A stretch of DNA of 64,000 bases from Candidatus Parcubacteria bacterium (GCA_003599295.1 QZJK01000001.1:88-64087), one strand, 5' to 3'. Numbered from the stretch's first letter, positions 23,119 through 64,000 are shown. Numbers and translations: made by a program. The notes: generated from the sequence alone by a model not told the origin.

Positions 23119-24891
23119 TTAACTTCTTGCAATAACGATCCGAGGCGCTTTGCCGTTTTCGGAGCGAATGAACGTCATTGCATCCTTCGTGAGAGAACCC
23201 AGTGCGAGTTTCGTCGAAGAAGGCACGCGAAGCGGGATAGAAGCAGCAACTGATTTCGCGAACTGCATCGGTGCTTCCATGACCGGCGCGGGAACGCGGG
23301 CTTTGATGCCAGCGAACATCGGCAGGTAGTAGACTGCGAGATACGAGGCCGCAAGAGCGAACGCGAGGATCGAGAAGTAATAGGCCATTGTTCCAACGGT
23401 GCCGAGATCAAGGCCTGTGTATGGGATCTGTGTCAACGTTATCTGCGGAGGATATACCGGAGGCGGAGGGATGACCTGGGTTTGCGTCTGGCAGGTCGCG
23501 CTTTGGCCCTGCGCGTTGTACACGGTCATCGTGTACATCACGTAGCCGTCCGTGTACACCGTGCGAGAACCGGAAGTTGGGACAGAACCGATCAGGGGCG
23601 AAATGTATGCACTCGTCGCGTTGTTCGAGCCCCACGTGAGAGTCGCTTGCTGATTGTAGTTGTACGAGCCGTACCCATACTGCGGCGTGAGCGTTATCCA
23701 GCAGCTCGGCGGATTTTGGAATGGAATGGTGCTTACGGTGACAGTTGTTTGACACTGCGCGCTTTGACCCTGTGCATTGTAGACGGTCAGCGTGTATGTC
23801 GTTGTGTGCAACGGATACACAGTTTGGTTCCCATTCACGCCCACGTTGCCGAAATTCGTAAGGGTTGCGGACACCGCGTTCGAAGACGACCAGGTGAGGT
23901 ACGAAGAGCCGCCTGTTTGAATAGAAGACGGATTTGCGGAAATCGTGCACGAGGGCGTTTGCGCCTGTTGGACCGTAATCGTGGTCTGGCAGTTCGCGGT
24001 GCCGCCGGGGCCGGTCACGGTAAGTGTGAACGTCGTGTTCGAGGTGAGGTTGTGTTCCGCGTGCGAATCGTTGAGGGCGACAGTGCCGTGGCCCGAGAGC
24101 GACGCAGAGGTCGCGTTGCTGGAGCTCCATGTGAGTGTGGAGGAACCACCGTGCTGCACGTTGTTCGGATTCGCAGAAATAGTGCACAACGGAGCATTCG
24201 GAACCTCCTGAACGGTGACGAACGTCTGGCAGTTCGCGGTGCCGCCGGGGCCAGTTACCGTCATCGTGTACGTGGTCGTTACCGACGGCGAGACGGACGT
24301 CGAACCTGAAAGCGCGACATTACCGATGCCTTGATTGATGGTTGCCGACGTGGCGTTGGTCGAACTCCACGTGAGCGTAGATGAGCCGCCGTGCTGGATC
24401 ACGTTGGGATTTGCAGAAATGTTACACGCGGGAACAGGATTCTCCACAACGACGGTCGTCTTGCAAGTTGCCGTGCCGCCGGAACCCTTCACGGTGAGAG
24501 TGTAGGTCGTGGTAAGTGTCGGAACTACGGTAAAGGTGCCGCTTGTGCCGACAGAGCCGATGCTCGAGAGTGTCGCGGATGAAGCGTTCTTCGACGTCCA
24601 TGTCAGCACGGAGAAATCACCGGACTGAATTTTATCCGGATTTGCGGAAATATCGCACGACGGTTTCGGCTTCTTTTTTTCGCGGTCATTGTCGCGGTCG
24701 TTATCGCGACCACCTCCGCCGCCGCAACAACCACCGGAAGAACCGTCGCTCCATGCCGACGCAACTGAAGCAACAGAAACGCCGCCCTCATTTGAGAACG
24801 TCATTGAGAATGCAACGGTGCCCAGTGCAATCACGAAAACGGTCGTTGCGACCGACACTATCACTTTTCCAGAAACCGATTTGAAATTCAT
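23119..24891 (-). CDS. Surface protein paralog 1 (590 aa): signal peptide, five or more Cys-bounded Ig-like repeats, C-terminal IPYTG-TM-conserved tail
   Basis: N-terminal hydrophobic signal; repeated ~70-aa modules C.ISANP..IQ.GGSS.LTWSS.NATSA...TTTYTLTV.G.GGTA.CQTT; C-terminus QIPYTGLDLGTVG followed by a TM helix and a tail ending APRIVIARS. Confidence 0.8.
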   Translation of the reverse strand: MNFKSVSGKVIVSVATTVFVIALGTVAFSMTFSNEGGVSVASVASAWSDGSSGGCCGGGGGRDNDRDNDREKKKPKPSCDISANPDKIQSGDFSVLTWTSKNASSATLSSIGSVGTSGTFTVVPTLTTTYTLTVKGSGGTATCKTTVVVENPVPACNISANPNVIQHGGSSTLTWSSTNATSATINQGIGNVALSGSTSVSPSVTTTYTMTVTGPGGTANCQTFVTVQEVPNAPLCTISANPNNVQHGGSSTLTWSSSNATSASLSGHGTVALNDSHAEHNLTSNTTFTLTVTGPGGTANCQTTITVQQAQTPSCTISANPSSIQTGGSSYLTWSSSNAVSATLTNFGNVGVNGNQTVYPLHTTTYTLTVYNAQGQSAQCQTTVTVSTIPFQNPPSCWITLTPQYGYGSYNYNQQATLTWGSNNATSAYISPLIGSVPTSGSRTVYTDGYVMYTMTVYNAQGQSATCQTQTQVIPPPPVYPPQITLTQIPYTGLDLGTVGTMAYYFSILAFALAASYLAVYYLPMFAGIKARVPAPVMEAPMQFAKSVAASIPLRVPSSTKLALGSLTKDAMTFIRSENGKAPRIVIARS

Positions 24892-24980
24892 ACGAAATAA
24901 TTATGTTTTTGCTAATAACGATTAATAATTTTGGTAAGCAATGTTGGGAGGGGCGCATGGCGCCCGCTCCCAGAACCGGT

Positions 24981-25250
24981 CTACACGCAGGGATTCGCCC
25001 TGTACGTGTGGCCGGGGCGCAGCCAGCAGTGCCCGTTGAAGTAGAGGCGGTAGCCTTGTGCCTTGAGAGAGGCACGAAGCGCCCTCACCTCCGGCTTGTT
25101 GCGCTGCTCGTACTTGAGGACGAGGCATCCCATGTGGGGGACGTGCTCGTGCAAACGCCCCTTGGTGTAGTGGGCCTCGGCGGTACCGGCGACCGCGGCG
25201 AAGATGGTAGCGACACCGATGAGGACGGCACCCGTGAGAAGCTTGCGCAT
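24981..25250 (-). CDS. Hypothetical small secreted Cys/His-containing protein (~89 aa)
   Basis: Start at internal Met MRKLLTGAVLIGVATIFAAVAGTAEA (signal peptide) with AGGAAAGGA upstream; no known domain. Confidence 0.45.
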   Translation of the reverse strand: MRKLLTGAVLIGVATIFAAVAGTAEAHYTKGRLHEHVPHMGCLVLKYEQRNKPEVRALRASLKAQGYRLYFNGHCWLRPGHTYRANPCV

Positions 25251-25375
25251 CTGAATTCCTTTCCTGTGAGTGATGGATCTGCTCCGGAATCCTTGCGGAT
25301 CCCGGAAACGAACGAGCACGCAGTTACGCGTGCTACTGTCGAGTACAGTACCTGATAATCAATGCCCTGTCAATA

Positions 25376-25407
25376 GCAAAAGATGGCTCTGTAGAGCCAT
25401 TTTTTGC
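25376..25407 (-). terminator. Bidirectional intrinsic terminator downstream of paralog 2
   Basis: caaaag-ATGGCTC-tgta-GAGCCAT-tttttgc (A-run/hairpin/T-run). Confidence 0.55.
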
Positions 25408-25426
25408 TACCACGATTTGACAGTGA

Positions 25427-26572
25427 CTAATTTCGATTGTCTGAATTTTGCGACTCAGAGCGGAAAATCGCCGGCACTTCTACGCTGTTTTCCGTCTTCG
25501 CGAAGACTTCCGAAGAAGTCATCGGTGCACGAGAAGGTGCACGGAACGACAAACGGCTCGGAAAGTAGTAGACGACCATATAACCCGCACCGAGCGCAAA
25601 GAGTGCGATAGCGAACCAGTACAGCGTATTCCCTACCGTCCCGAAATCGAATCCTGTGTACGGAATCTGGTCGAGCGAGACGTTGGTCGAAGGCACCGGA
25701 GGAGGATACGTTGGGTACGTCGGGCCCGGATAGTACGATGTGCCGGTGACTGAAACATATGCGCTGCATGTCTGCGTGCGGCCTTGATTGTCATTCACGG
25801 TCAACGTGTAGTTGCGTGAGCTCTGCGGATAGACGGTGCGCGAGCCGCTCAAAGAAACGCTTCCGATGCCATCAGAGAGCCAAGCGCTCGTCGCTCCGGA
25901 GGATGTCCATGTGAGGTTAGTCGTTCCGCCCGGCGGAACCGTTTGCGGATTCGCCGTGACGGTGCAGTAAAGATTGCCCGGCTGGTAGTACGAAGATGTC
26001 TGACAGGTCGCCGACTGGCCCTGCGAATTGTAGACCGTCATCGTGTAGATCTGATTTTGCGTCGGGTATACGGTTTGCGAGCCGGACGTCGCGGCGGAAC
26101 CGATCGAAGAAATATTAGCGGAATTTGCATTCGTCGAGTCCCACGAAAGTGTCGCTGGCTGATTGTATTGGTACTGGCCGCTGTACTGCGGCGCAAGCGT
26201 TATCCAACAACTCGGCGCGCCACTCGTACCGGTAACAGTAACGGTCGTCTGACACTGACCACTCTGCCCTTCTGTGTTGTAGACAGTAAGAACGTATGTG
26301 TTCGTCGAGGAAGGATAGAATGTCTGCGAACCGGAGAGCGCGACCGAACCGACATTCGTGAGATTGGCCGAACTGGCGTTCGTCGAATTCCACGACACCA
26401 CGACCGGCGTATAGCTGGTTCCCGAGTAAGCAATGTTCGACGGATTTGCACTAATGGTGCACGTTGGCGCGACCTGCGCAGATGCAAATGAGATAGAGAG
26501 AGCGAATATCGCGATGCTTGCGAGGACGCTAATCGCAATGATACGTACTCTGTCGGATGCGTGTGTATTCAT
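25427..26572 (-). CDS. Surface protein paralog 2 (~381 aa): signal peptide, three Cys-bounded repeats, IPYTG-TM-tail
   Basis: Start at ATG encoding MNTHASDRVRIIAISVLASIAIFALSISFASA (the track's M at 26605 is a TTG); modules CTISANPSNIAY..., CWITLAPQYSGQYQYN..., CTVTANPQTV...; C-terminus LDQIPYTGFDFGTVG plus TM. Confidence 0.75.
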   Translation of the reverse strand: MNTHASDRVRIIAISVLASIAIFALSISFASAQVAPTCTISANPSNIAYSGTSYTPVVVSWNSTNASSANLTNVGSVALSGSQTFYPSSTNTYVLTVYNTEGQSGQCQTTVTVTGTSGAPSCWITLAPQYSGQYQYNQPATLSWDSTNANSANISSIGSAATSGSQTVYPTQNQIYTMTVYNSQGQSATCQTSSYYQPGNLYCTVTANPQTVPPGGTTNLTWTSSGATSAWLSDGIGSVSLSGSRTVYPQSSRNYTLTVNDNQGRTQTCSAYVSVTGTSYYPGPTYPTYPPPVPSTNVSLDQIPYTGFDFGTVGNTLYWFAIALFALGAGYMVVYYFPSRLSFRAPSRAPMTSSEVFAKTENSVEVPAIFRSESQNSDNRN

Positions 26573-26651
26573 ACTGAGTGCTCTGTTACGTGGTAATAGG
26601 TTCAACCCTTTTGAGGCGTGCTATTGGGACCATACGGGATTTTGAGAGTAC

Positions 26652-26657
26652 TGTCAA
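26652..26657 (-). promoter_or_regulatory. Putative -35 (TTGACA) of the paralog 2 promoter, with TATGGT -10 17 nt downstream
   Basis: Minus-strand TTGACA-N17-TATGGT upstream of the MNTHAS start. Confidence 0.4.
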
Positions 26658-26664
26658 CAATAAC

Positions 26665-26689
26665 GAAATCGCCCTTTTCGGGCGATTTT
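26665..26689 (-). terminator. Intrinsic terminator downstream of paralog 3
   Basis: GAAATCGCCC-ttttc-GGGCGATTTC palindromic hairpin flanked by T/A-rich sequence. Confidence 0.5.
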
Positions 26690-26710
26690 CGTTAGTTCAG
26701 AAAGCGAGAT

Positions 26711-27877
26711 TTAGCTGCGTGTTATGACGATGCGCGGTGCTTCCCCGTTCAAAGAACGCGCGAGCGTCATTGAGTCCGAAAGCATTGAGCCGGTCTTTGC
26801 GCGAAAGTCCTTCGCCGGCTTCGCAACAATAGTTGAAGCCGCGGAACGAGCGAATTGAATCGGTGCTTCCATCACACGCGTCGGAACCATCTGCTTCACG
26901 CGGAAGAGCGCGGGAATGTAGTAGACGGCAAGGTAGGCCATGGCGACGGCGAAGAGTGTGATACCAAGCCAGTAGAATGTGTTCCCTATCGGACCCCCGT
27001 CAAAGCCTGTGTACGGTATCTGGTTCAGCGACACGTACGGAGCCGAGTACGAGGGATAGTAATTCGGGTACGTGGGCGGATAGTAATAGTACGAAGGAGG
27101 AAGGACTGCGGTCGCAGTGTACTGCGGCGTCGCCGTGTACACAGGCGCGGGATTGTTCGTGATGTTCGTGTACGTGTTGAAGCTGTCGTTGATGCTGTAG
27201 TCGTAGGTGTTGTAGCTTCCTGAAATGCTATTGTCGATGGTCGTGTTCGATATCGGCTGCGAGGTGCCGACGGGATAGCTCGTGAAGAGCGGGGCTGTGT
27301 ACGTCGAAGACATAGAGTGTCCGACAGGTGCCGTGTAGTAAGACGGGGCCGCAATTCTAACCGGTGCCGCTACGCCGACGGGCTTAGAAACAGCTATGGG
27401 CGCAGAGTAGAGCGAGGGCGCTGTGTACGTCGGCACGTACGAATACCCGACATCATAGACGTCATACGCAGTGGCAGTGTAGTAATCCGTGTAGCCGAGG
27501 TAATCAGAGTTGCTACCGTAATACCCGAGCGTATCCGCGTAGTAACCAAGAGTATCCGAATAATTGTAGTACCCCAGCGTATCAGCACCGTAATAACCGA
27601 GCGAATCACTGAACGAATCCCAACCAGAACCGCCGTAGTATCCAAGTGTATCGCTGCCAGACCAATCGAAGTATCCAATTGAATCAGACGAGCCACTGAA
27701 AGAGCCGAGTGTATCCCACGAACCTCCGAAATATCCCAACGTGTCTGAACTACCTCCGTAGTACCCGAGAGTGTCCGCACGAACCGTGGATACAGGCAGG
27801 AGCAAGGTAGCAACAAAAATCGCAACGAAAACGCCCACGACAGTAAGTGTGAGATCGCCAGTGATTGTGTTTTTCAT
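26711..27877 (-). CDS. Surface protein paralog 3 (388 aa): Tyr/Gly/Ser/Thr-rich, (S/A)DTLGYYGG tandem repeats, IPYTG-TM-conserved tail
   Basis: N-terminal TM/signal; about 12 DTLGYY-type repeats; C-terminus LNQIPYTGFDGGPIG plus TM; tail VMEAPIQFARS...APRIVITRS closely matches paralog 1. Confidence 0.75.
   Translation of the reverse strand: MKNTITGDLTLTVVGVFVAIFVATLLLPVSTVRADTLGYYGGSSDTLGYFGGSWDTLGSFSGSSDSIGYFDWSGSDTLGYYGGSGWDSFSDSLGYYGADTLGYYNYSDTLGYYADTLGYYGSNSDYLGYTDYYTATAYDVYDVGYSYVPTYTAPSLYSAPIAVSKPVGVAAPVRIAAPSYYTAPVGHSMSSTYTAPLFTSYPVGTSQPISNTTIDNSISGSYNTYDYSINDSFNTYTNITNNPAPVYTATPQYTATAVLPPSYYYYPPTYPNYYPSYSAPYVSLNQIPYTGFDGGPIGNTFYWLGITLFAVAMAYLAVYYIPALFRVKQMVPTRVMEAPIQFARSAASTIVAKPAKDFRAKTGSMLSDSMTLARSLNGEAPRIVITRS
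27470..27770 (-). repeat. Imperfect tandem coding repeats (about 24-30 bp) encoding (S/A)DTLGY(Y/F)GG in paralog 3
   Basis: Repeated gtatccgagcgtatc / gtagtaaccaagagtatc-like units on the plus strand. Confidence 0.7.
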
Positions 27878-29859: not shown

Positions 29860-30135
29860 TCATTCTGTCAACTTTTCCCTCTCTATTTTCCGCTTCAGTT
29901 GCTCCAAAGAATCTGCAGCTTCGAGTCCTTTTTCTTGTATCTCGCTAATCGCATGTTCTTCTCGGATGGCATCGAAAAGAGTATTGAATAAAAGCGCGCG
30001 TCGCTCCTCTTCCGGAAGCCGCGGATAGTAATGCTCCACGTATTCGCGCACCTCGCCTTCCGAGCCGTTCTCGGTCAATTCCACAAGTTTCTCGCGGAAT
30101 GCGTCCAACTCTTCTTTTGTCATTACGGTGACCAT
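29860..30135 (-). CDS. Hypothetical small acidic helical protein
   Basis: Start 2 nt after the stop of the 566-aa gene (translational coupling); EEERRALLFNTLFDAIREEH. Confidence 0.4.
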   Translation of the reverse strand: MVTVMTKEELDAFREKLVELTENGSEGEVREYVEHYYPRLPEEERRALLFNTLFDAIREEHAISEIQEKGLEAADSLEQLKRKIEREKLTE

Positions 30136-30137
30136 AG

Positions 30138-31838
30138 TTATGCGTGAACGGGCCTGCCGAGTGCGGCGCTTGCCCCTTTGTTCCAATTTTGACCGAGCAG
30201 TATCTCAAAGACCCACGCCCAAAATCCTGTACCTGCATGTTCTTTTCTCTCGGTCTCGGCCATGCCGCCAAGTATACGGTCTTGTGCGGCGATATCGTTT
30301 TGCGGCCAGTCTCGCTCTCGCATGCGCGCACGCACCCGCTCCTCAACTGATTTCGGCGAGAAACGCTCCTTGCTCAACTTCTGCGCTTCCTCGTAAGAAT
30401 GCGGACCTCCTTCGCCGGACGCCTTTTGATTCTTGTTTGAAAGCACCTCTCGCGCGATACGCGTTCTCATTTCGGGATTGGAAATTGTCGGTTGGAGGAA
30501 TTCGGCGATGTCCTGCAGCGTTCCATCGATGCGGTTCATGACCCAGGAGCGCGGGTCGCGTACATCAAGCCGCGTTGGCATGGCTGATTCCATTTCACGC
30601 ATTGCCATCAGTGCAGCATTTCTCGAAGACCCGACAAAAGGGATTTTAGTAATTCGTTCAGCTCGATCAATCGCACGCCTGAACGTTCCAGCTCGTTCGT
30701 GAATATATGCAGTCAGTTGGTCTTTGCTGGCTTGCCGCTCATTCGCATTCGAGACGTTTACCATAACGGTCAGATCCTTTCGCGAAAGACCCAGCCGATC
30801 ACTAATCGCCTTGATGTCTTCATCGGCGCGTTTATATCTCAATGTGCCTCGATCTTTTTCCATGTCTGCCATCGCGCCCCACATCTTCATGATGTCGTCC
30901 GGCTTCTCCATCGCTTGATGCAATATTGCCTGATGCACCATCTCTGTCGCCCTATCGCCTTCGTGCGTAAGCAAGTTCAAAAAATCTTTATTCCGACGTG
31001 CTAAAAGCTCCACCTCCTGGGGCGTCATGCGCTTATTGATATCTTCGGCGAATCTCAAGCGCAGAGAATATTCATGCGCCGCATACGTCATGAAATCCAT
31101 GTCCTCTTTCGTCGGAGCGCCGTTGATATACCGCTCGAGAGCTCCGTCGGCATCTTTTGAATTGATGGCTCGCAGCGCTTCTCCGAAAAGCTGCGAATCG
31201 CGACTGTCCGCGAGAATGTCTCGGATGGGCTTTATCGGAATTCCCGCATACCGTCGGTCCCGTATCTCATAGGCACCCGGCCGCGGCCCGCCCGACATTA
31301 TGCGTCCCGCGTCGAGCCGTCCATCGCGAGAATGTTCCGGTGTAGGCGGCTCCGGCGATTGCACGCTGGGACCATCGCCCTGCCCATCGGCGGCGGCCGC
31401 AATGTATGCGCGATTAAATCGGAGCGGATTATTTTGCTGTTCGGGACTTGCTGGCGACGCAAGCGGTGTTGTTGGGGTAGGTTCTGTTGTCGTGGATGTT
31501 TGGTCATTTCCTCGCAGAGGTGAAGCTGGTGTTCCGTCAGCATCTAACATCCTTAATCTATATCTAACGGGTCCGCGCGGAGCGCCCCCGAGCATTTGAT
31601 GCGCGACCTCATCCTCTTCCGGCGTTCCGGGAACAAGTTGACGCTCGCTTCCGTCGGGATTGAACAGCACGACACCTTCGTCGCGTGATTGATATTCAAC
31701 TTCTTGAGGTGTTTCCGGCGATGCTTCGCCAGACTCTTCTTGTTGAACAGGGATCCGATTGCCGGGTGCGCTTGCTTCCTCGTCTTCTTCTCTGATGCGT
31801 ACGGTCTGTGAACGATTCAAGCCATCCTCCAAATTCAT
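30138..31838 (-). CDS. Hypothetical protein (566 aa) with about 200-aa disordered acidic/Pro-rich N-terminus and helical C-terminal region
   Basis: Long ORF, no TM or signal peptide, no recognisable catalytic motifs. Confidence 0.6.
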   Translation of the reverse strand: MNLEDGLNRSQTVRIREEDEEASAPGNRIPVQQEESGEASPETPQEVEYQSRDEGVVLFNPDGSERQLVPGTPEEDEVAHQMLGGAPRGPVRYRLRMLDADGTPASPLRGNDQTSTTTEPTPTTPLASPASPEQQNNPLRFNRAYIAAAADGQGDGPSVQSPEPPTPEHSRDGRLDAGRIMSGGPRPGAYEIRDRRYAGIPIKPIRDILADSRDSQLFGEALRAINSKDADGALERYINGAPTKEDMDFMTYAAHEYSLRLRFAEDINKRMTPQEVELLARRNKDFLNLLTHEGDRATEMVHQAILHQAMEKPDDIMKMWGAMADMEKDRGTLRYKRADEDIKAISDRLGLSRKDLTVMVNVSNANERQASKDQLTAYIHERAGTFRRAIDRAERITKIPFVGSSRNAALMAMREMESAMPTRLDVRDPRSWVMNRIDGTLQDIAEFLQPTISNPEMRTRIAREVLSNKNQKASGEGGPHSYEEAQKLSKERFSPKSVEERVRARMRERDWPQNDIAAQDRILGGMAETERKEHAGTGFWAWVFEILLGQNWNKGASAALGRPVHA

Positions 31839-34453: not shown

Positions 34454-35125
34454 TTAAAGAACCCCTACGAACTCCGCGTCCAGGATCCAGCGGCTGTCTT
34501 TTGAGGTAAGCGTGTCGCAGGTGACGAGCGTAAGACGCGTGCCGTTCTTCGTCGAGAGGTCGATTATCTCGTCGTTCGCGTTTCCGCGGCGAACGGACTT
34601 CACGATATAAAGATACGACTTGCCATCTCCCATGATGGTTATCATGTCGCCGGGTGATAGCTCTGGTACGCGATTGAATGCACGGTACATCTGATTACGC
34701 ACGACCGGAAGATTTGACGTGTGCGCAAATATTAAGACATTGCCTTTCTCACCGGCTTTCGCCGAATCCACGTACCGTACCGGGCCGCTCTTTAGATATC
34801 CATCGAGCGTCTCAATGTCGCGCGTCGCGGGATTTGAGACGGGAAGATCAAGGTCGATCGAAGGAATGACGATGCGCTCAGGAAGTGCCGTAGGCACTGC
34901 CGGCTCATTTTCTGCGATGGTGGATTCGCTTCCGAGCTCCGGGAGATTTGAAAGCGCGACGCGCTCATCGCGAGATGGCGACCCGTCAATGTAGTACGGA
35001 ACGAATCCGACTGAATCGGCCGCAGAGAGGGTGAGGAAGAACATCACAATAGACGCAGCGAAAAAAACCCGCTTCGGAGGTTTCGCGTGATTTCGGATGT
35101 TTGAATTGTTGAAATTCGGCTCCAT
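34454..35125 (-). CDS. Sortase family transpeptidase
   Basis: N-terminal TM anchor; catalytic triad context NVLIFAHTS (His), TRLTLVTCD (Cys, TLXTC), SRWILDAEF (Arg). Confidence 0.85.
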   Translation of the reverse strand: MEPNFNNSNIRNHAKPPKRVFFAASIVMFFLTLSAADSVGFVPYYIDGSPSRDERVALSNLPELGSESTIAENEPAVPTALPERIVIPSIDLDLPVSNPATRDIETLDGYLKSGPVRYVDSAKAGEKGNVLIFAHTSNLPVVRNQMYRAFNRVPELSPGDMITIMGDGKSYLYIVKSVRRGNANDEIIDLSTKNGTRLTLVTCDTLTSKDSRWILDAEFVGVL

Positions 35126-35166: not shown

Positions 35167-35209
35167 ATGCACTGTCTCCGGAGTCCAAAAGATGGTTTTC
35201 GAGCGCTCC

Positions 35210-35238
35210 TTGACAAGTGCCTTATATCCATGTATCGT
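35210..35238 (+). promoter_or_regulatory. Promoter TTGACA-N17-TATCGT for the CARDB-domain protein, 12 nt before the ATG
   Basis: CTTGACAAGTGCCTTATATCCATGTATCGTGCCGGAATTCTTATG; divergent from the sortase promoter. Confidence 0.45.
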
Positions 35239-35250
35239 GCCGGAATTCTT

Positions 35251-36324
35251 ATGGCAGAAAACACACAGGCGCCAGGACGGCCGTTTACCATCCCTCCCCC
35301 GCCTGAAGACACACGCACCAGTCTCATCTCGAACGTTCTCGCGGTCGCGGGGTTCATCGTCGTTATTATCGTCGTCATTTGGGGGCTCGTGAACCTCGCG
35401 AGCATCTCGCGCGGATGGTTCGGTTCCTTCTTCGGAGGCTCTTCGCAGGAAGAGACCATCGAGATAGCGGCTCCGGAAAACGCGGATTCAGGTGAAGTAT
35501 TCCGCATCACGTGGGAACACGAACCGTCTTCGACGGGTTCATATGCGTTCCTCTATCAGTGCGTAAGCGGTCTAGAGTTCCGCACGCCCACCCCGATGGG
35601 AACGCTCGGAGCTATCCCCTGCGGAGCTGCGTACACCGTTCCTTCCGACAGCGCGCTCACACTGACCGGTCTGCTTTCGGGAACATCTTCGGCTTCGGTC
35701 CCGCTTTCGATTATTTTCTTGCCGAGTGCGACAGGAACACGAGCGGAAGGAAGCGCTTCCATGACCATCAACAGAGGGGCTGCCATTCCTACGCCGACTC
35801 CTACTCCGACGCCCACGCCGACTCCTACTCCGACGCCCACGCCGACTCCTCAACCGACCCCAACCCCGGCACCGCGTCCTGCGACTCCGGCTGACCTTTC
35901 CGTCTACATTATGTCAGTGATACCCGATGCGGCAGGAATAACGACCGTCACGTTCTCGATTGCGAATAACGGCGGCACATCAAGCGGCACGTATTACTTC
36001 ACCGCCGAGCTCCCGACGACCCAAGCGTACACATATGCGTCGCCCGCGCAGGCATCGCTCGCGCCTGGCTCTTCAATCGTCAACACACTTCGCTTCACGC
36101 AGACGCGCCAAGGCGGCGGTACGTTCTCCGTCTCCGTTGATCCTTCGAACATCGTCCGCGAATCGAACGAGATAAACAACTACGCAAGCCAATTCATCAA
36201 CACGAATGTATACAATCCGTACCCGTACAATTACAACAATCAAAACCCATACAACAACCAATACCCGTACCCGAATCAGTACCAGCAGTATCCGTACTCG
36301 CAGTACTACCCGTACGCGTACTAA
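35251..36324 (+). CDS. Membrane-anchored cell-surface protein with (TP)n linker and CARDB-like domain; Tyr/Asn/Pro-rich C-terminus
   Basis: N-terminal TM ISNVLAVAGFIVVIIVVIWGL; TPTPTPTPTPTPT linker; CARDB-like features (LSVYIMSV..., VSVDPSNIVRESNEINN). Confidence 0.7.
   Translation: MAENTQAPGRPFTIPPPPEDTRTSLISNVLAVAGFIVVIIVVIWGLVNLASISRGWFGSFFGGSSQEETIEIAAPENADSGEVFRITWEHEPSSTGSYAFLYQCVSGLEFRTPTPMGTLGAIPCGAAYTVPSDSALTLTGLLSGTSSASVPLSIIFLPSATGTRAEGSASMTINRGAAIPTPTPTPTPTPTPTPTPTPTPQPTPTPAPRPATPADLSVYIMSVIPDAAGITTVTFSIANNGGTSSGTYYFTAELPTTQAYTYASPAQASLAPGSSIVNTLRFTQTRQGGGTFSVSVDPSNIVRESNEINNYASQFINTNVYNPYPYNYNNQNPYNNQYPYPNQYQQYPYSQYYPYAY
35791..35880 (+). repeat. Tandem repeat encoding the Thr-Pro linker
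   Basis: acgccgactcctactccgacgccc unit repeated about 3 times. Confidence 0.8.
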
Positions 36325-56407: not shown

Positions 56408-57085
56408 ATGGAAGAGCTTTACCATTGCCTTAACCGCGGGGTCGACAAGCGAACGATCTTCACCGACAACAGGGACCGTGCTCGCTTCGTGCACGATCTC
56501 TATGAATTCAACGATGATAGACCAGCGTTCAACGCGGGGCGAGGGTTCAGCGGCAAGCCAGACCCCATGATTGACTTCGTAAGTCAATCATCGGAGCGGG
56601 GGGTGGCACTTGTCGACATACATGCGTGGTGTCTCATGGGAAATCACTACCATCTCTTACTTTCTGAAGCGAAAGAGGGCGGCGTTTCTCTCTTCCTTCG
56701 AAAGCTGAACGTTGGATATGCACGATATTTCAACGACAGACATCGGCGCCAAGGCACACTATTCCAGGGGCGAACAAAGAAGATCCATATCAGTTCCGAC
56801 GCGCATTTTCTCCACATACTGCACTATATTCATCTCAACCCGCTTGATTTTCTCAAGGGCTCTGAAGACTGGCGCTCGTTACGCGTCAAAAGCGCAAAAC
56901 AGGCCCTTAGCCATTTGATGCAATATCGTTGGAGCAGTTATCTTGATTACTGCGGCAGAAAAAATTTTCCTTCCATTCTGACGACCGGACTTTTCCGCGA
57001 TGTGTTCGGAAATTACGGAAGTGTCCTTTCCTCATACCTCAAGGATATTGAGCTTTCCGATGTCAAACCGTACCTGCTGGAATGA
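56408..57085 (+). mobile_element. tnpA: IS200/IS605-family HuH Y1 transposase (REP-associated tyrosine transposase-like)
   Basis: YHCLNRGVDKRTIF N-terminus; HuH motif GNHYHLLL; YIHLNPL motif; MQYRWSSYLDY candidate catalytic Tyr region; flanked by inverted REP-like hairpins; the unit is about 725 bp. Confidence 0.8.
56567..56591 (+). repeat. REP-like palindrome, copy 2, in-frame inside the RAYT ORF (encodes MIDFVSQS)
   Basis: ATGATTGAC-TTCGTAA-GTCAATCAT. Confidence 0.85.
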
Positions 57086-57111: not shown

Positions 57112-60100
57112 TTACGGGGTTGTGTCTTCAGGGACTTGAGGAGTCGGTTCTGGTGTAGGTTCCGGCGTAGTGGTTGCGGGTTCCGGTTCTGGTGTAGGTT
57201 CGGGAGCAGGTTCTGCTTGCGGTGAGCTTGTTGAATCCGGTTCAGTCTGCCCCGACTCGTCAGGCGTCGGGGATGTCGGTTCTGGCTCCGGAGGAGTCGT
57301 GGTCGCGGTATCAGGCGGCGGCGTTGTCCCTGTCTCTTCTGGCGGTGGGGTCGGAGTCGGCTCGTACACCTCGACGATGCGCGTCGCTACTGTGGCATTG
57401 TCGTCTTTGTCTACGGCGCGATAGGTTATCTCATAGGTCGTCGAGGTTGATGTGTCGAGGTGGACGGCGTTCACATGCTCGCCGTCCACAAATACCGTCG
57501 CGATGAGGCCGTCGTCCTTGTCGTCGGAAACGAGAGCGCCCAAGTCGGTGTATGAGCTGCCGACCGCGACGCGCGCAGGGTTGTCGCCCATGATGATTAT
57601 TCTCGGCGCACCAGCCTCTCCCGATGATTGACCTACGAGGTCAATCATTGAAGCTGGGTCGCCCTCGCCATTTCCATCTGCGTCCGTGGATGTAGAGGTA
57701 GAGGTAGACACCGCGGCTCCCGCAGCCATCGCCTCAAGGTCATCTCCGTCCACACAAAATTCGGTGCCGTCGGACTTTTCTACGCAGATCTCTTTTGTAT
57801 GCACACGATTCGCAAAGAAATCCGTAATCCCGTTCGCCGCGTCGGCGAACCAGGATGCGATGCTCCCAAAGAGCCGTCCGAGGAAACTGTTGTCGAAATA
57901 TGAGGGGGAAGTGGAGGTGGCTTGCTCCGAGCTCATGGCAGTTGAACTCGCGCTCGTGATGTCGGATGTGGTCGCGCTGGTGGTGGTCGTAGCGGGGCCG
58001 AAGAGCCGCTCGGTAAATGCGGTGATGAGGCGCTCCACGAATCCCGGTGTCGTGGTCGCGGTAGAGCTTGCGGCAGAGTTGGTGGCAAGCAGTGCATCAG
58101 TGAGCGCACTCAAGCTAATCCCTGGCTGGAGGTCAATAAATATTTCGATGAGTTCATCTTCGCTTGCGCCGCCCGTGTACGGCTCAAGCGCAATGCCAAC
58201 CGTCGCGTCAAAGAGTGTCGCTTTGCGGCCAACGCCCGGCGTTGATGAGAGCGCGATACGGTCGCCGATATTAATCTCACCGCCTTCTATAGTTACCTTC
58301 GTCGGCACGCGGCCCTTGAGAGCTACTGGCCGCTGGCCAAAGGGCTGCTTGGTGTCTCCGAGCAAGAGACCTGGTTTGGTCGAGATAACCCCCGCAAGTG
58401 GGCGGTCTGCTGCCGCGTCTGCTAGAGAGACTGCTATTGGATAGCTCGTTGCAATCGCAACGATGTCTCCCGCCTCAACACCTGGACCCTCCACAGCATA
58501 GAGCTCTGCCAGGTCTGCGCCGCTGTTGGAGATGGTGTAGATATATATGGTGACACCGCCGTGGCCGCCTTGGCCGCCGTCGCCGCCGGTGGTGCCGGCG
58601 CCGCCACCACCACCACCACCCATGGTGCCGTTGACGCCGTTGACGGAGCCCTGTATGCCGCCGTCGCCGCCGCCAAGAAAGCCGCCGAGGACGCTGCCGG
58701 TTTCGCCGGTTTCGCCGAGTTCGCTGTGGGCGCCGGTCTGGCCGTTGCCGTTGCTGTTGCCGGCGCCGCCACCGCCACCGCCGGGGCCGCCGGAGTTGCT
58801 GGCGCCGTTGTTGCCGGCGCCACCGGAGCCGCCGGTGTAGTTGAAATCACCCCCCGAGCCGGTGCCGCCGGTGCCGATGGTGGTGTTGGCACTTCCGCCG
58901 CCGCCGGCACCACCTGTCGCTTGGATGGTAGGGCTGGTGCATGCGGTTGCATTCGTTCCGTAGCAGGTGGTGCCTCCTGCCGTGCCCGTGCCAGTGCCGG
59001 TGTTCCCCGCGCCGCCTGCGGCGACGGTGTAGTAGCTTGCGGTCGTGTTCGTAATTATCTTCCGAGAATAGCCGCCTCCGCCACCGCCGTTGCCGCCGTC
59101 ATCGGCGGCATCTTCGCCGCCTCCGCCACCGCCGCCGCTTCCCCAAACCTCTGCGGTGTAGTACTGGGTGTTTGATGGGAGAGTAAGCACGCCTGCAGAA
59201 AAACTTGGGGAGCTGTCGACGGCTCCAGTAAAGACGACAGAGACGTTCGAGCCCGGCGTCGATGTGGAGTATACGAACGCAAGCGCTGTTGTCTCCCCTA
59301 TGCACTCGCCATTGCGGGCATAGCAGCCCGAGGTGATGTTGATACCAGTGCCGAATGTTGATGTTGCAGTTGCAGAAATATTTATCGTGTTTGCACCCGT
59401 GTTGCCCAATGAAAGTAATGTACCGGGACTGGAGGTGCCTATGCCGACGTTGCCGGTGTTTTGAACAATGGTGACAAGGTTTGCAGAAAAGGCCCCGGCG
59501 TCTGTCATCTTTTGGAATACCCAACCACCGCCGGTAATACTTGTCCCACCATCGTACACTAATCTTCCGTTCTGATTACCGGTAGTCCGGGTGTCAGACA
59601 TCATAAAGGCCGCTTGGCCTGCCGTGCTAACACTCAACTTTGAAAGAGGGCTCGTCGTCCCGATACCGACGTTGCCGGTACTGGTTACTACCACCTTAGG
59701 TGTATTGGTTGCGCCAGGAGTATCCGCGGTATTAAATGCAAATCCACCGTAACCACCCAAAGTAAGAGCATTAACATTAAACTCGCCATGTAGCCCACGA
59801 CCGATGTAGAGGCCCGCGCCGGTGCTTGTTGCCGCTGCTGCAGTGTCTCCAAAAGACACAACTCCGGTGGTGCCGTCGTAGCCGGATACTTTTAGATTTC
59901 CTTTTACTTCTAACCGGTCAATGGGGGTTGTATCTCCGATACCGACGTCGCCGGTCGAAGTTAGCCGCATTTTTTCTGAGAAGCCCGTCCCGTCCGCCGC
60001 CGTCGAAGGTCCGAAACGGAGATCGTTGACGGTCCCTCCATTCCAGTGGATGGCCGGGCCGACGCTGCTGTGCGCGAACAGTGAAGTGTAGTCGTTGCCA

Positions 60101-63100
60101 GACTCGGCTGCGATATTTGTGCCTTGCCCGCTGGTTTTCCAGACCGCGAGCTGCACGTTCGGAGTCGTCGTCCCGATGCCGACTTTGCCTGCCGTAGTTA
60201 TAGTAAGTGTCGAGGTGCCAACGGCCGTGTCGGTCCCACTAAAGTAGGCAACCTGGCCAGTGGTGCCGGTGAGTGAAGCGCTTCCGCCACCCACACAGGT
60301 ATCGTTGATGGCGTAGCAGCCGGTCGTGATGTTGAAGCCGACGTTTGAAGTGGAGGTGGCAGAGCCCGAGATGGTGAGACCGGTGACGGTTGTCGTGCCG
60401 AAGCCGGTGCTTGCGATAGAGAACGGAGAGTTAACGGTGTCGACGAGCGCATCGGAGGTCGTTGCGAGCTTGAACGTGCCGCCGGTAGATTGCAGGAACC
60501 AGTGTTTGAGGTTGGCGCCTGCACTCGTGTCGGAGAGAGTGAACTTCGGTGTGGTGCTTGCCACATGAAGAATGCTATTGGGGGTCGTGGTACCGATACC
60601 GAATCTGGCGGCCGCTGTAATGCGTGCGGCAACGCCATTGTTTTCGTCAAATGAGGAGTTATTGACGTTGAAACTTATCCCTTTGGTGGCACCTGCTTGT
60701 AGTACGACAAAGTTACTGTCGAGTCCAACGTTTCCTCGACTGTCGCCGAAGTCCACGCGCCAGGTGCCAGCGCCTTGACCAACGTTCACAACACCACCTA
60801 TGACCTCTAAATCACCTGTTGTCGTAGCGTTACCCGAGACTGTGAGGCCACCTGCCCCCGTGCCGTCACCGATAGTAGAAGAAGCGAGGGCGTAGAGCCC
60901 GACATTGAAGCCGATAAGGGTGGAGGTGGAGTTTGCGGCAGTGGAGCCGAAGGTGGTCGGCGTCCACGAGAATGTGCCGCTTCCTGTGCCGCATGCAGTG
61001 CCGGTGTTCGAGATGGTGCCGTTTGTGCTGAAGGTCGCACAACCTGCAGTGCCGCCTGCGCTGGAGACCGTGAGGTTGGTCGTGCTTGCCGTGCCCGAGA
61101 CCGTGATGGCGGTCGAGGAGGCGTATGGGAATGTGGAGGCAGCGGTGGTGGAGGTTGCGACAAAGTGTGAGGCGTCTACGAGTGAAGTGAAGCGTGCGTT
61201 TCCGGTTACGTCGAGATTGTAGGTGGGGGAAGTGTCTCCGATCCCGATGTTGCCGCTATTATCTATTACAAACCTGCTCGTTGTTGCTGTTCCGGCGGCA
61301 TTGATATAGTTAATCGTAAACAAGCTACTAGATTCAAACGCTGCATTAGATGCCTTTCCTCCAATCACCCATGCGGAATAACCGCTGTTGATTCTTGTTC
61401 CTGTATTGGCCACCTCACCAGGATTATCAATATAAGCGTTCACACCAAAGAAACCTAGCTGATGGTTCCCATCGCCGGTGCGTACTCCCATAACAACATC
61501 GTCCGCACCGTTCACATTGCTTGTAACACGCAACATTTCCAGACCCGACGAGGCATCATCTCTTGATAAATGAAGTAATGACCCCGGATTCGCCGTCCCC
61601 ACCCCTACGTTACCTTTTCCATCAATCACGAAGCGATCGTTGGTGCCGAGTGCGGTGGAGGAAGAAATCTTGAACTTGCCTCCATCAGAGTAGTCCTGAC
61701 CGATAGTCCACTTGTATGGGTCGCCGGTGAGGGAGGAGAATTCGATGGCTGAATCCGCCGTTGAATTAAAAATGGAGAGTTTTTGGTTGGGCGTCGTCGT
61801 CCCTAGCCCCACGTTGCCGGAATAGTCGATTGTCATTGCCGTATTGGTGATACCGCTAGCGTATGAATTTGAAGTGCCGAAATGGAGGTAACTGCCTGAG
61901 GAGGTAACTTGCGAGCCGATGCGAGCTTTTGGAATACCGAATGAGGCCGCGCCACTCACAGCACTTCTGCTTCCGAAATCAATTACAGTATATTCATTTG
62001 CACCCGTACCCGCTTGCACCCGTAGTTGACCATCAGTGGTCCCTGTAAATGCCGAAAGTGCAGTCCCCTCTATATTTAGATTTGTTTCTGGTGTAGTTGT
62101 CCCGATACCGACGTTGCCGGTCGTTGTTATCCTGACCTTTTCGCCCGCGGCAGCATAAAATCGCAAATTGCCCGCATCAGAATCCAAAATCATGTCGGTC
62201 AAGTTATCGCCACCACCGAGATAGCCGATGCGAGTTGCAGCATTGTAGAGAGTTAGGTAATTCTGCGATCCGCCTGTAGCTTCGAGGCGAAGCATCTCTC
62301 CTGAACTACTCGTGACGTTTAACTTTGTTGCAGGTGTCGTCGTCCCGATGCCGACGTTGCCGTTTTCATTGACCATCAGGAGGGATGTGCTCACTTGTCC
62401 CGTGCCTGCCGCTAACGTTTGAAAATGGAACCCGCCGCCGCCGAAGGACATGATGGACCCCTGCCTGCCTGCATGGTCGGTCGTTCCCGTGAACGGGCTC
62501 GTATAGTTGAGAGGCTGAAGACTCGAGGTCACGTTCACCCCGCTGGTAAGCAATGTGAGTTCTCCGTCCGGCCCTTGGTAGAGGCGCGCGGATCCAGCGA
62601 GAGCGGTAGCCGCTTTATTCTCCCACTGAGCCAAAAGTTCTCCGGTTGCCGACGTGCCGTACACATGGAGCTTCGTCGAGGGCGATGTCGTCCCGATACC
62701 GACGTTGCCGCTGTCGAGAATGCGCATCGCTTCGGTGAGCGTGCCGGAACGGAGCGTCGAGAAAGCGAGGTTGCCGGCTCCGCCGTTGTAATTCTGGGTG
62801 AGGATGCCGGTAATGGCCCCCGTCGAGGTGGCGTTCACGAGGTCTTTGGTGCGGAAGGAGAGGCGGGAGGCGGTCGAAGTGGCGGAGAAATCGTTCGTGA
62901 GGTAGAGCTGGTCAGCGGTGGCGCCCGAAGAAGAGTTGGTGACGTCGAGTTTCGTTCCCGGCGTTGAGGTGCCGATGCCGACGTTGCCTGTTGTTGATTG
63001 CAACACTACGGCCCCAGATTCGTTATCTATTTTCAGTGGGATTGCGCCAGTACCTTGGATCCCTTTTTGCACACCACCCGCCTGGAACAACATATACTCT

Positions 63101-64000
63101 GTGCCCGGTGAGGACGCATTGGAAATCTTGAGCGCGTTTCCAGTCCCGGCGTTGGTCAAGACCGTGAGGGGCGTGTCGGGTGTCGTCGTCCCGATGCCGA
63201 CGCGTTGCGACGAATCGATTCGAACCGCTTCGGTACCCGATGTGCGGAACCTCATGCTTGAGCCAGCCTCCGCTCCATAAAAGTCGAAAAGGTCGTTCGT
63301 CCCGTCGTAACTAATCATTGCATACCGTGTCGAAGCGTCCGAGATATCACCGATGACGGTCGTGTTGCTTCCTGCACTCGGATGCAAACGAATGCCTTGG
63401 TTCGTAGTCGTGAAGAGATAGAGTGGTGCGATTGTGTTATTCGTCGAAGGTTGAGAACCATTCGCGCCGCCGATTATGTTACTGGAGAAATAGGCTTTGA
63501 GTGTAGTCGTCGCTCCTCCTGAAATGGTGAGTCCGCCTGCTTGAGCGCCGTTCCCGATGGTGGTGGACGCGAGGAAGAGGTTGCCGCCAGTGAACCTGTT
63601 GTTGCCCGAGAAGGTGTTGGAGTCGGCAAGGAGAGTTGAGGAGGCGAACGTCCACGTGGAGGTGGAGAAGGTGTAGAGCGCGCCGGTCGAGTCGGCTGCG
63701 AGGGCGCCGGAAGTGTAATTGGAGAGAGTGAGCGTGGAGGTGGCGGTGAGTGCGCCGCCGAAGAACGCGGTGCCGCTCACATATGAGTTGCCCTGTACTG
63801 AAAGTGTTTTGGCTGGCGAGGTGGTGCCGATGCCGACGAGGCCGGAGGAGTTTATTATAAGCCGGGGCGTATAATTGGTGCCGAGCCACACGTTACTAAC
63901 GCCAGACAGGCCTACGGCGTAATCACCGCCGAAGGTATTATTGGGATCTCCATAGGAAAGATGGCCAACAGTGAAGTCACCTACTGACCCGGCGTTGAGA
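57112..64000 (-). CDS. Giant repeat-containing surface protein (>2290 aa; 5' end beyond window): tail-fibre-like GNVGIGTTxP repeats, Gly-rich region, C-terminal DUF5011 Ig-like domain and Pro/Thr/Glu-rich tail
   Basis: More than 15 repeats of G(N/D)VGIGTT(S/T)P..KL.V; the frame stays open upstream of the track's GTG start to the window edge; C-terminal IIIMGDNPARVAVGSSYTDLGALVSDDKDDG...TYEITYRAVDKDDNATVATRIVEV resembles DUF5011. Confidence 0.8.
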   Translation of the reverse strand, partial: LNAGSVGDFTVGHLSYGDPNNTFGGDYAVGLSGVSNVWLGTNYTPRLIINSSGLVGIGTTSPAKTLSVQGNSYVSGTAFFGGALTATSTLTLSNYTSGALAADSTGALYTFSTSTWTFASSTLLADSNTFSGNNRFTGGNLFLASTTIGNGAQAGGLTISGGATTTLKAYFSSNIIGGANGSQPSTNNTIAPLYLFTTTNQGIRLHPSAGSNTTVIGDISDASTRYAMISYDGTNDLFDFYGAEAGSSMRFRTSGTEAVRIDSSQRVGIGTTTPDTPLTVLTNAGTGNALKISNASSPGTEYMLFQAGGVQKGIQGTGAIPLKIDNESGAVVLQSTTGNVGIGTSTPGTKLDVTNSSSGATADQLYLTNDFSATSTASRLSFRTKDLVNATSTGAITGILTQNYNGGAGNLAFSTLRSGTLTEAMRILDSGNVGIGTTSPSTKLHVYGTSATGELLAQWENKAATALAGSARLYQGPDGELTLLTSGVNVTSSLQPLNYTSPFTGTTDHAGRQGSIMSFGGGGFHFQTLAAGTGQVSTSLLMVNENGNVGIGTTTPATKLNVTSSSGEMLRLEATGGSQNYLTLYNAATRIGYLGGGDNLTDMILDSDAGNLRFYAAAGEKVRITTTGNVGIGTTTPETNLNIEGTALSAFTGTTDGQLRVQAGTGANEYTVIDFGSRSAVSGAASFGIPKARIGSQVTSSGSYLHFGTSNSYASGITNTAMTIDYSGNVGLGTTTPNQKLSIFNSTADSAIEFSSLTGDPYKWTIGQDYSDGGKFKISSSTALGTNDRFVIDGKGNVGVGTANPGSLLHLSRDDASSGLEMLRVTSNVNGADDVVMGVRTGDGNHQLGFFGVNAYIDNPGEVANTGTRINSGYSAWVIGGKASNAAFESSSLFTINYINAAGTATTSRFVIDNSGNIGIGDTSPTYNLDVTGNARFTSLVDASHFVATSTTAASTFPYASSTAITVSGTASTTNLTVSSAGGTAGCATFSTNGTISNTGTACGTGSGTFSWTPTTFGSTAANSTSTLIGFNVGLYALASSTIGDGTGAGGLTVSGNATTTGDLEVIGGVVNVGQGAGTWRVDFGDSRGNVGLDSNFVVLQAGATKGISFNVNNSSFDENNGVAARITAAARFGIGTTTPNSILHVASTTPKFTLSDTSAGANLKHWFLQSTGGTFKLATTSDALVDTVNSPFSIASTGFGTTTVTGLTISGSATSTSNVGFNITTGCYAINDTCVGGGSASLTGTTGQVAYFSGTDTAVGTSTLTITTAGKVGIGTTTPNVQLAVWKTSGQGTNIAAESGNDYTSLFAHSSVGPAIHWNGGTVNDLRFGPSTAADGTGFSEKMRLTSTGDVGIGDTTPIDRLEVKGNLKVSGYDGTTGVVSFGDTAAAATSTGAGLYIGRGLHGEFNVNALTLGGYGGFAFNTADTPGATNTPKVVVTSTGNVGIGTTSPLSKLSVSTAGQAAFMMSDTRTTGNQNGRLVYDGGTSITGGGWVFQKMTDAGAFSANLVTIVQNTGNVGIGTSSPGTLLSLGNTGANTINISATATSTFGTGINITSGCYARNGECIGETTALAFVYSTSTPGSNVSVVFTGAVDSSPSFSAGVLTLPSNTQYYTAEVWGSGGGGGGGEDAADDGGNGGGGGGYSRKIITNTTASYYTVAAGGAGNTGTGTGTAGGTTCYGTNATACTSPTIQATGGAGGGGSANTTIGTGGTGSGGDFNYTGGSGGAGNNGASNSGGPGGGGGGAGNSNGNGQTGAHSELGETGETGSVLGGFLGGGDGGIQGSVNGVNGTMGGGGGGGAGTTGGDGGQGGHGGVTIYIYTISNSGADLAELYAVEGPGVEAGDIVAIATSYPIAVSLADAAADRPLAGVISTKPGLLLGDTKQPFGQRPVALKGRVPTKVTIEGGEINIGDRIALSSTPGVGRKATLFDATVGIALEPYTGGASEDELIEIFIDLQPGISLSALTDALLATNSAASSTATTTPGFVERLITAFTERLFGPATTTTSATTSDITSASSTAMSSEQATSTSPSYFDNSFLGRLFGSIASWFADAANGITDFFANRVHTKEICVEKSDGTEFCVDGDDLEAMAAGAAVSTSTSTSTDADGNGEGDPASMIDLVGQSSGEAGAPRIIIMGDNPARVAVGSSYTDLGALVSDDKDDGLIATVFVDGEHVNAVHLDTSTSTTYEITYRAVDKDDNATVATRIVEVYEPTPTPPPEETGTTPPPDTATTTPPEPEPTSPTPDESGQTEPDSTSSPQAEPAPEPTPEPEPATTTPEPTPEPTPQVPEDTTP
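57624..57648 (-). repeat. REP-like palindrome, copy 4, in-frame inside the giant gene (encodes MIDLVGQS on the minus strand)
   Basis: Minus strand ATGATTGAC-CTCGTAG-GTCAATCAT. Confidence 0.85.
58545..58920 (-). repeat. GC-rich simple-sequence region ((GGC)n/(GCC)n-like) encoding the Gly-rich segment of the giant protein
   Basis: Runs of gccgccaccgccacc...; all six frames open here; encodes GGGGGGG/GSGG stretches. Confidence 0.7.

Follow-up and report, generated by a model that had tools for sequence, protein, structure and literature searches.

A QIPYTG, membrane helix and cytoplasmic tail module on three tandem Parcubacteria surface proteins: a candidate extended LPXTG-type sorting signal

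Three neighbouring genes of a Candidatus Parcubacteria bacterium encode surface proteins that end in the same C-terminal module, made of a QIPYTG motif, a transmembrane (TM) helix and a tail predicted to lie in the cytoplasm. They are located within a 64,000-nucleotide stretch of DNA, referred to below as the window, whose positions serve as coordinates throughout. All three are on the minus strand and their open reading frames (ORFs) code for 590, 392 and 388 amino acids (aa). The module appears to be a dedicated, recurrent C-terminal anchoring or sorting element. We favour, with moderate confidence, the reading that the three proteins are sortase substrates carrying a lineage-specific, extended LPXTG-type sorting signal, to which the TM helix and the tail are additions. 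The undescribed part of this signal is the extension, namely a near-invariant TM helix followed by a long, conserved cytoplasmic tail.

Anatomy and family of the C-terminal module

An earlier note on this DNA had described three minus-strand genes ending in IPYTG, a TM segment and a tail. The ORFs and the positions of the motifs confirm this description (Table 1), and a six-frame motif scan of the whole window retrieved [ILV]PxTG followed by a membrane segment in these three ORFs only. In all three proteins, the core reads L[TDN]QIPYTG[LF]D.G..G and continues with about 26 uncharged residues ending in Y[LM][AV]VYY, after which the tail begins. The motif had been written (Q/D/N)QIPYTG; the motif itself stands, and the residue before its first Q is T, D or N, so that Q has to be removed from that position. 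Overall, 26 of the 110 columns are invariant among the three modules. The hydrophobic segment of 26 residues begins 4-8 residues past the G of IPYTG. AlphaFold (AF2) modelling based on a 23-sequence alignment of the module (A2) predicted residues 17-42 as a helix, with a predicted local distance difference test score (pLDDT) of about 90. Weaker helices were predicted across the MEAP.QFAKS region, and a terminal β-hairpin (AMTFIR/PRIVIA) at low confidence (pLDDT ~56). The count of Lys plus Arg is 0.07 on the outer flank of the TM segment as compared to 2.6 on the inner one. The flanks therefore follow the positive-inside rule, which places the tail in the cytoplasm, in agreement with the topology proposed earlier. 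At the N-terminus, a hydrophobic segment is present in all three proteins, with an AxA-type site visible by inspection in genes 2 and 3. Such a hydrophobic run is found in 107 of 120 full-length family members.

The tails comprise 68, 45 and 68 aa in genes 1, 2 and 3, respectively. Those of genes 1 and 3 have in common VMEAP[MI]QFA[KR]S, D[AS]MT... and NG[KE]APRIVI[AT]RS; the first and the last of these elements are those on which conservation of the two tails had been proposed, and both are indeed present. Over the module, genes 1 and 3 are 49% identical and keep the same motifs. The tail of gene 2 stops after a VPAIF motif and is devoid of the terminal PRIVI element. A frameshift or pseudogene origin of this short tail was ruled out: no PRIVI remnant was found in any frame downstream of gene 2, and the gene 2 orthologue on a Kaiserbacteria contig (L001) has the same short tail.

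The three ectodomains differ from each other, as had been observed, with Cys-bounded immunoglobulin (Ig)-like repeats in genes 1 and 2 and Tyr/Gly-rich repeats of the DTLGYYGG type in gene 3. In the latter, a DNSI..SFN motif and a Tyr/Pro stalk stand between the repeats and the module. Among 128 family members whose N-terminal part is substantial, a Cys-bounded Ig-like repeat ectodomain is found in 110 and an ectodomain of the gene 3 type in 18, that is, Tyr/Asp/Gly/Ser-rich tandem repeats whose unit sequences differ, followed by DNSI[NS].SFN. The idea of a dedicated module set on interchangeable extracellular parts thus holds for at least two classes of ectodomains, which in practice coincide with the orthologues of this array's tandem genes. 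The gene 2 ectodomain contains no Lys; that of gene 3 contains no Cys and two Lys. Both are very rich in Ser, Thr, Tyr, Asn and Gly, and their near lack of Lys may reflect avoidance of proteases or of sortase nucleophiles. We also observed that the mature part of gene 1 opens with an odd CCGGGGGRDNDRDNDREKKKPKPSC segment (aa 55-78), ahead of the first Ig-like repeat. PF26918, precomputed on some homologues, turned out to be Ig_Eae within the ectodomain and is irrelevant to the module.

A search with full-length gene 1 retrieved 1440 homologues, 120 of which were listed; about 80 of these 120 carry [ILVMA]PYTG followed by a membrane segment. Word-indexed searches of 5.8e9 proteins, performed with the 110-aa module alone or with a 31-sequence core-only alignment, gave nothing significant because these queries are too short for a database of that size. 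An exhaustive profile search, of the kind suggested in the earlier note, was therefore needed. Run against 1.84e9 cluster representatives (50% identity), the A2 profile yielded 817 matches with E <= 1e-3, of which 274 reached E <= 1e-10. The 150 best matches all finish at the C-terminus of the protein or at most one residue from it, and 149 of them span the profile end to end. [IL]PYTG is found in 143 of 145 new profile matches, and ITFTG in one. Overall, the number of matches and their position at the C-terminal end indicate that the likeness of the modules goes far beyond chance.

Position-wise conservation was calculated over 160 members, a set in which QIPYTG itself was a selection criterion. 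After the motif, the conserved positions are D14 (94%), G16 (96%), G19 (94%) and N20 (75%). Within the TM helix, they are Y23 (98%), W24 (92%), F30 (83%), A31 (95%), A33 (85%), Y36 (100%), L37 (94%) and Y40 (95%). The sequence [RK]GG or P comes just after the helix, then a variable linker of ~30-120 aa, and the C-terminus reads D.M...G.[AM]P(97%)R(91%)I(90%)V(85%)I(93%)xR(98%)x-COOH. In the linker, the short motif P[AVSTMK][IMLVQ]F occurs in 31 of the 160 members, as compared to 3.7 in shuffles, and LP[VTAI] in 56 of 160, as compared to 4.3. Tail lengths range from 45 to 68 aa in the window and from 56 to 145 aa across the family. The three-gene array is syntenic in related Kaiserbacteria/Paceibacterota metagenome-assembled genomes (MAGs), with a module identity of 30-70% between species.

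A linked sortase and continuity with classical sorting signals

A sortase gene sits 6.6 kb upstream of the module genes, on the same strand, and its product is presumed to be the enzyme that processes the module proteins. Its catalytic His (FAHTS), Cys (TLVTC) and Arg are intact, and these three residues are kept in 22 orthologues, with His in FAHSS and Cys in LTLVTCDT. The closest solved relative, B. anthracis SrtA, was found at E=1e-3 only. Fifty-three module-anchored loci were retrieved from distinct species genomes, and linkage was counted in the 23 having at least 9 kb of upstream sequence. A member of this sortase family was found upstream, on the same strand and 1.8-9.7 kb away, in 20 of these 23 loci, and downstream in none. 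In one of the three exceptions (L002/L007 contig), the sortase is located just past 10 kb. A reciprocal test used metagenome loci anchored on the sortase, 14 of which had at least 9 kb downstream. At least one IPYTG gene was present downstream on the same strand in 13 of these 14 loci; one was present upstream in 2 of 26. Co-occurrence with sortase genes, a question raised with the first description of the module, is thus observed from both sides.

In distant Parcubacteria, the positional orthologues P0038 and P0107 are located one small gene after the sortase and have wholly different cytoplasmic regions. One distant locus has extra genes inserted on the side of the threonyl-tRNA synthetase (ThrRS) gene. 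The finding of a PYTG gene beside the sortase in distant lineages, despite different tails, strengthens the case for linkage. As a separate observation, the membrane-proximal segment of the sortase, LSAADS[VI]GFVP.YIDG, is at least 90% conserved among orthologues, which is unusual for the anchor region of a sortase. Its pairing partner may be the juxtamembrane and TM part of the substrates, which is likewise conserved.

The module was compared with known sorting systems using Pfam (2025), NCBIfam 20.0 and the PDB. Neither the full window proteins nor the isolated cores gave a match to the module in Pfam or NCBIfam, and a PDB sequence search with the module profile returned noise only (E > 1). 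Models for the PEP-CTERM, GlyGly-CTERM, PGF-CTERM and type IX secretion system C-terminal domain (T9SS CTD) tags did not match the window C-terminal modules; the sole weak tag match, Por_Secre_tail at 16.5 bits (below 23), falls inside the gene 2 ectodomain. A scan of 26 window ORFs revealed neither an exosortase nor a rhombosortase. The module resembles the PEP-CTERM/exosortase, GlyGly-CTERM/rhombosortase and PGF-CTERM/archaeosortase systems, in which various surface proteins likewise end in a short signature motif, a conserved TM segment and a group of basic residues. However, it has no NCBIfam tag match, its motif belongs to the LPXTG class and it is linked to a sortase. In full-text literature searches, neither a PYTG signal nor extended tails were found to be described. 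An abundance of sortases and 'sortase motifs' is on record for bacteria of the candidate phyla radiation (CPR; PMC6744442, PMC5220378).

The resemblance to the LPXTG signal recognised by the housekeeping sortase A is closer. An N-terminal secretion signal, a Pro-rich wall-spanning stalk, an [ILV]PxTG pentapeptide, a hydrophobic segment ~8 residues on, basic residues on the cytoplasmic side and a genome-encoded sortase with His, Cys and Arg were all found. The short basic tail was not: basic residues do follow the TM segment, but they open a long tail with conserved non-basic motifs. This tail measures 45-145 aa, as compared to the 5-10 basic residues of classical signals. In addition, QIPYTG is the fixed form of the motif in the module, the flanking sequences L[ST]Q... 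and ...[FL]D[FL]GP.GN are conserved, and its TM helix is nearly invariant whereas the classical one is merely hydrophobic.

Relatives with the same Ig-repeat ectodomain end in textbook sorting signals, for example VSSVPYTGPEDGIYVGVMGIISLISFAVLYRRRHGLRAILNI, with a short basic tail (VPYTGPED...YRRRH). Two of these short-tailed relatives score above the 15.9-bit cut-off of TIGR01167, the curated LPXTG_anchor model, P0037 with 17.6 and P0119 with 22.7 bits. Tandem neighbours in syntenic loci combine the same LTQIPYTG[FL]D.GP core with other endings, either short and basic, or an amphipathic helix, or a recurrent ...YQAF.NVA..AA.P...RR tail; the core genes of these loci comprise 59 with PRIVI tails versus 27 with other ones. 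Further relatives extend 150-300 aa past the motif. Since the same core is found with several endings, it is the PYTG-TM core that is conserved as a unit, with the cytoplasmic extension as an exchangeable addition. Two positional orthologues from other Parcubacteria (L139, 10001-12304; L140, 10001-12892) carry the same PYTG-TM core, followed by cytoplasmic regions of 220-290 aa. AlphaFold folded one such long region into two domains with high confidence (pLDDT >90). Among PDB folds, clamp-loader γ/δ domains II-III came closest to the long cytoplasmic domains, but the similarity is marginal (E ~1e-3, TM-score 0.33), and no function was therefore assigned to them. The tail motif [AT]PA[IM]F[AS][KR] was also considered as an FtsZ C-terminal peptide. 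Its register differs (P-x-φ-F-x-K versus P-x-F-L-R in FtsZ), which leaves a weak lead only; a Parcubacterial FtsZ (L141) ends in IPSFLRR, and 'DVPAFL' in long-tail relatives is the start of a helical domain.

Taken together, the stalk, the [ILV]PxTG motif, the TM segment, the inner basic residues, the linked sortase and the short-tailed relatives that pass the LPXTG_anchor model argue for an extended variant of a described signal. The earlier view that no described sorting signal is involved remains valid for the long tail, which has no Pfam or NCBIfam match. It does not hold as a separation from LPXTG/sortase systems, in view of the formal elements, the sortase and the short-tailed relatives.

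Dedicated sortase/substrate cassettes offer another comparison. They include class B SrtB-IsdC (NPQTN), class D and E sortases with their own motifs and a 'marine' sortase with a single target. Here as well, a divergent sortase in a conserved neighbourhood goes with one to three substrates bearing a private motif variant. Unlike in these cassettes, there is no tight operon, 1.8-9.7 kb of variable genes lie in between and housekeeping genes are also part of the neighbourhood. We know of no dedicated sortase cassette whose substrates have long conserved cytoplasmic extensions.

Proposed processing and alternative explanations

According to the favoured reading, the proteins would be exported by the Sec pathway, after which the TM helix would hold them in the membrane with the tail in the cytoplasm. 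The membrane-anchored sortase would then recognise L[ST]QIPYTG just outside the membrane; candidate substrate peptides of the window sortase around PYTG are VSLTQIPYTGFDFGP and YVSLTQIPYTGFDFGPIGN. The enzyme would cut between T and G and move the ectodomain, together with its Pro/Tyr-rich stalk, onto a peptidoglycan precursor. The G-FDFGP.GN segment, the TM helix and the tail would stay behind in the membrane as a fragment. The TM helix and the tail would most likely act before or at cleavage. They could dock the precursor to the TM region of the sortase, to a partner in the cytoplasm or to both, or else mark the remnant. The anatomy of the module, its conservation and predicted topology, the presence and linkage of the sortase and the continuity with classical LPXTG anchors are observed here; from these we infer that the sortase cleaves the proteins, that the ectodomains become attached to the wall and that the tail has a role.

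Several observations weigh against this scheme. The window proteins and the isolated core gave no TIGR01167 match even at E <= 10, and the sortase falls outside NCBIfam classes A-F. It remains below every class cut-off, the best score being obtained with class E (37 bits versus 160), so that its specificity is not readable from its class. There is no sortase within 10 kb on the L004/L006 contig, nor near the short-tailed P0119. The region is also block-syntenic, in the order GyrB-CARDB protein-sortase-variable genes-PYTG genes-ThrRS-DnaE-RNase HII-L32-NusB, with ThrRS present in 47 and DnaE in 46 of 54 distinct loci compared. Linkage to the sortase could therefore partly reflect inherited gene order, and linkage alone is no proof of function. 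The near-invariant TM helix and the C-terminal P-R-I-V-I-x-R (85-98% per position) are unexpected on a discarded remnant.

The main rival explanation, which we hold to be rather unlikely, is that these are permanent bitopic membrane proteins in which PYTG is a structural juxtamembrane cap or a vestigial sortase site, uncleaved or conditionally cleaved. The TM helix and the tail would then connect the Ig-repeat array at the surface with a partner in the cytoplasm and so serve scaffolding, localisation or signalling. The exceptional conservation of the TM helix, for example at Y36, Y23, A31 and W24, and of the extreme C-terminus fits such a function, as does the enrichment of the tail in the two short linear motifs given above. 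The recurrence in the neighbourhood of a small cytoplasmic protein of the 29860-30186 type points in the same direction. So do the 220-290-aa cytoplasmic regions with predicted folded domains of the positional orthologues, which would be odd on a throw-away remnant. However, the motif is kept in 143 of 145 diverged members, an invariance that a mere vestige would not show. Moreover, a sortase with an intact catalytic triad is retained beside these genes in lineages with different tails, and the curated model classes the short-tailed relatives as genuine LPXTG anchors. Permanent membrane residence and sortase processing may also be combined, as the tail may act before cleavage.

A tentative proposal, which we regard as unlikely, is that the sortase site, the TM helix and the tail make up one outside-inside coupling device. 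Two versions can be envisaged. In the first, the tail, with its short linear motifs and PRIVI β-hairpin or with the folded domains of sister lineages, would dock the precursor to a cytoplasmic partner, and this docking would decide the place and time of sortase anchoring. In the second, cleavage would free a conserved, membrane-tethered cytoplasmic fragment that reports on or regulates surface-protein display, as a built-in 'C-pep' signalling. The term comes from Streptococcus gordonii, in which, as summarised in PMC11326707, the SGO_1180 two-component system monitors the membrane peptide ('C-pep') left by sortase A. This system is a precedent for a function of the G-TM-tail fragment after sortase cleavage, and the only functional precedent that we found for a C-terminal remnant. 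In S. gordonii, the remnants are ordinary short signals sensed by a histidine kinase. In contrast, the Parcubacteria remnant would itself carry a conserved tail of 45-145 aa or, in other lineages, whole domains.

IPxTG-type motifs occur in pilins, and three tandem substrates with such motifs near a sortase, together with Ig-like repeats, could suggest a sortase-assembled heteromeric pilus or fibre, in which the three substrates are polymerised as in the Gram-positive SpaABC or RrgABC islands. This explanation is very improbable, and was rejected on lysine content and sortase class: the ectodomains of genes 2 and 3 contain zero and two Lys, the module proteins lack a YPKN-like pilin motif or YPK, and the window sortase scores 24.8 bits with the class C model NF033745, whose cut-off is 160. 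No CnaA/CnaB or pilin Pfam domain was found in the module proteins either, and in many related loci there are no more than two module genes, or just one.

Finally, although the three genes are adjacent paralogues, chance, a low-complexity artefact or the very recent duplication that the earlier note had envisaged for the tails of genes 1 and 3 can practically be dismissed in view of the 817 cluster representatives, of the array conserved in other species at 30-70% module identity and of modules 1 and 3 that are merely 49% identical, yet keep the same motifs.

Accompanying genes and meaning for Parcubacteria

The window has a GC fraction of ~0.56. Its gene 1 has an identical entry at NCBI, C4556_00095, which comes from a Candidatus Parcubacteria MAG. 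The three module genes had been described as adjacent. Their order is as stated, with an undescribed ORF for a small secreted protein lying between genes 1 and 2 (Table 1). This 89-aa protein is kept in the closest relatives only (L001, L008) and has no Pfam match; its belonging to the system is uncertain.

No universally conserved neighbour that could serve as a partner of the tails was found among the related loci. The only recurrent family is that of the small acidic protein encoded between the sortase and the module genes, with homologues in 35 loci, on either strand and sometimes in two copies. They lie in the variable stretch downstream of the sortase, where the sortase is in view. This protein is a possible partner of the cytoplasmic tails; the family is present in ~40% of complete loci, which is too few to call it a partner.

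The divergent neighbour of the sortase encodes a surface protein with a CARDB domain. This protein is anchored by an N-terminal TM segment, contains a (PT)n linker, ends in a stretch rich in Tyr, Asn and Pro and has no sortase motif. Its pairing with the sortase is kept in 17 loci and in the distant locus L139. Elsewhere, a giant ORF of 2259 aa has a Bact_surface_Ig-like domain and a PT/PE-rich C-terminus, without C-terminal TM segment or sortase motif, and adjoins an IS200-like Y1 transposase. The window also encodes a peptidoglycan lytic transglycosylase and UppS, which lend indirect support to the proposed attachment of the ectodomains to peptidoglycan.

Table 1. Position of the module genes, the sortase and accompanying features in the window
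Feature	Coordinates	Strand	Description
Gene 1	23119-24891	minus	590 aa; N-terminal hydrophobic signal/anchor, ~5-6 Cys-bounded Ig-like repeats, Pro-rich stalk, C-terminal module
Gene 1 module	23119-23451	minus	aa 481-590; IPYTG 23413-23427; TM ~23326-23403; tail 23122-23325
Gene 1 predicted terminal β-hairpin	~23125-23184	minus	AMTFIR / PRIVIA
Small secreted protein	24981-25250	minus	89 aa, Cys-containing; signal peptide ...AEA/HY; between genes 1 and 2
Gene 2	25427-26605	minus	392 aa; signal peptide ASA/QV, three Cys-bounded Ig-like repeats, short-tailed module
Gene 2 module	25427-25690	minus	IPYTG 25652-25666; TM ~25565-25642; 45-aa tail
Gene 3	26711-27877	minus	388 aa; signal peptide VRA/DT, Tyr/Gly/Asp-rich DTLGYYGG tandem repeats, module
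Gene 3 module	26711-27043	minus	IPYTG 27005-27019; TM ~26918-26995; 68-aa tail with MEAPIQFARS, ends in APRIVITRS
Small acidic helical cytoplasmic protein	29860-30186	minus	recurs between sortase and module genes in related loci
Sortase	34454-35125	minus	223 aa; N-terminal TM anchor, juxtamembrane LSAADSVGFVPYYIDG segment; Pfam PF04203, E=5.5e-18
CARDB-domain surface protein	35167-36324	plus	
IS200-like Y1 transposase	56408-57085		
Giant ORF	57112-63891	minus	2259 aa

Like other members of the CPR, Parcubacteria have not been cultivated; their genomes are tiny, and they are believed to live attached to other cells. This lifestyle depends centrally on surface proteins, which are almost wholly unannotated. 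Once QIPYTG and the conserved TM helix are read as a local sortase signal, hundreds of 'hypothetical proteins' can be annotated as probably surface-exposed and wall-anchored, and searches gain a signature that escapes current LPXTG models. The usual view is that a sortase signal has a disposable C-terminal side. A conserved cytoplasmic extension, replaced by folded domains in sister lineages, challenges this view and raises the question of a link between sortase processing and the cell interior in these organisms. If the coupling device proved true, it would represent a previously unknown function of the C-terminal side of sortase signals, in the envelope of an episymbiotic phylum.

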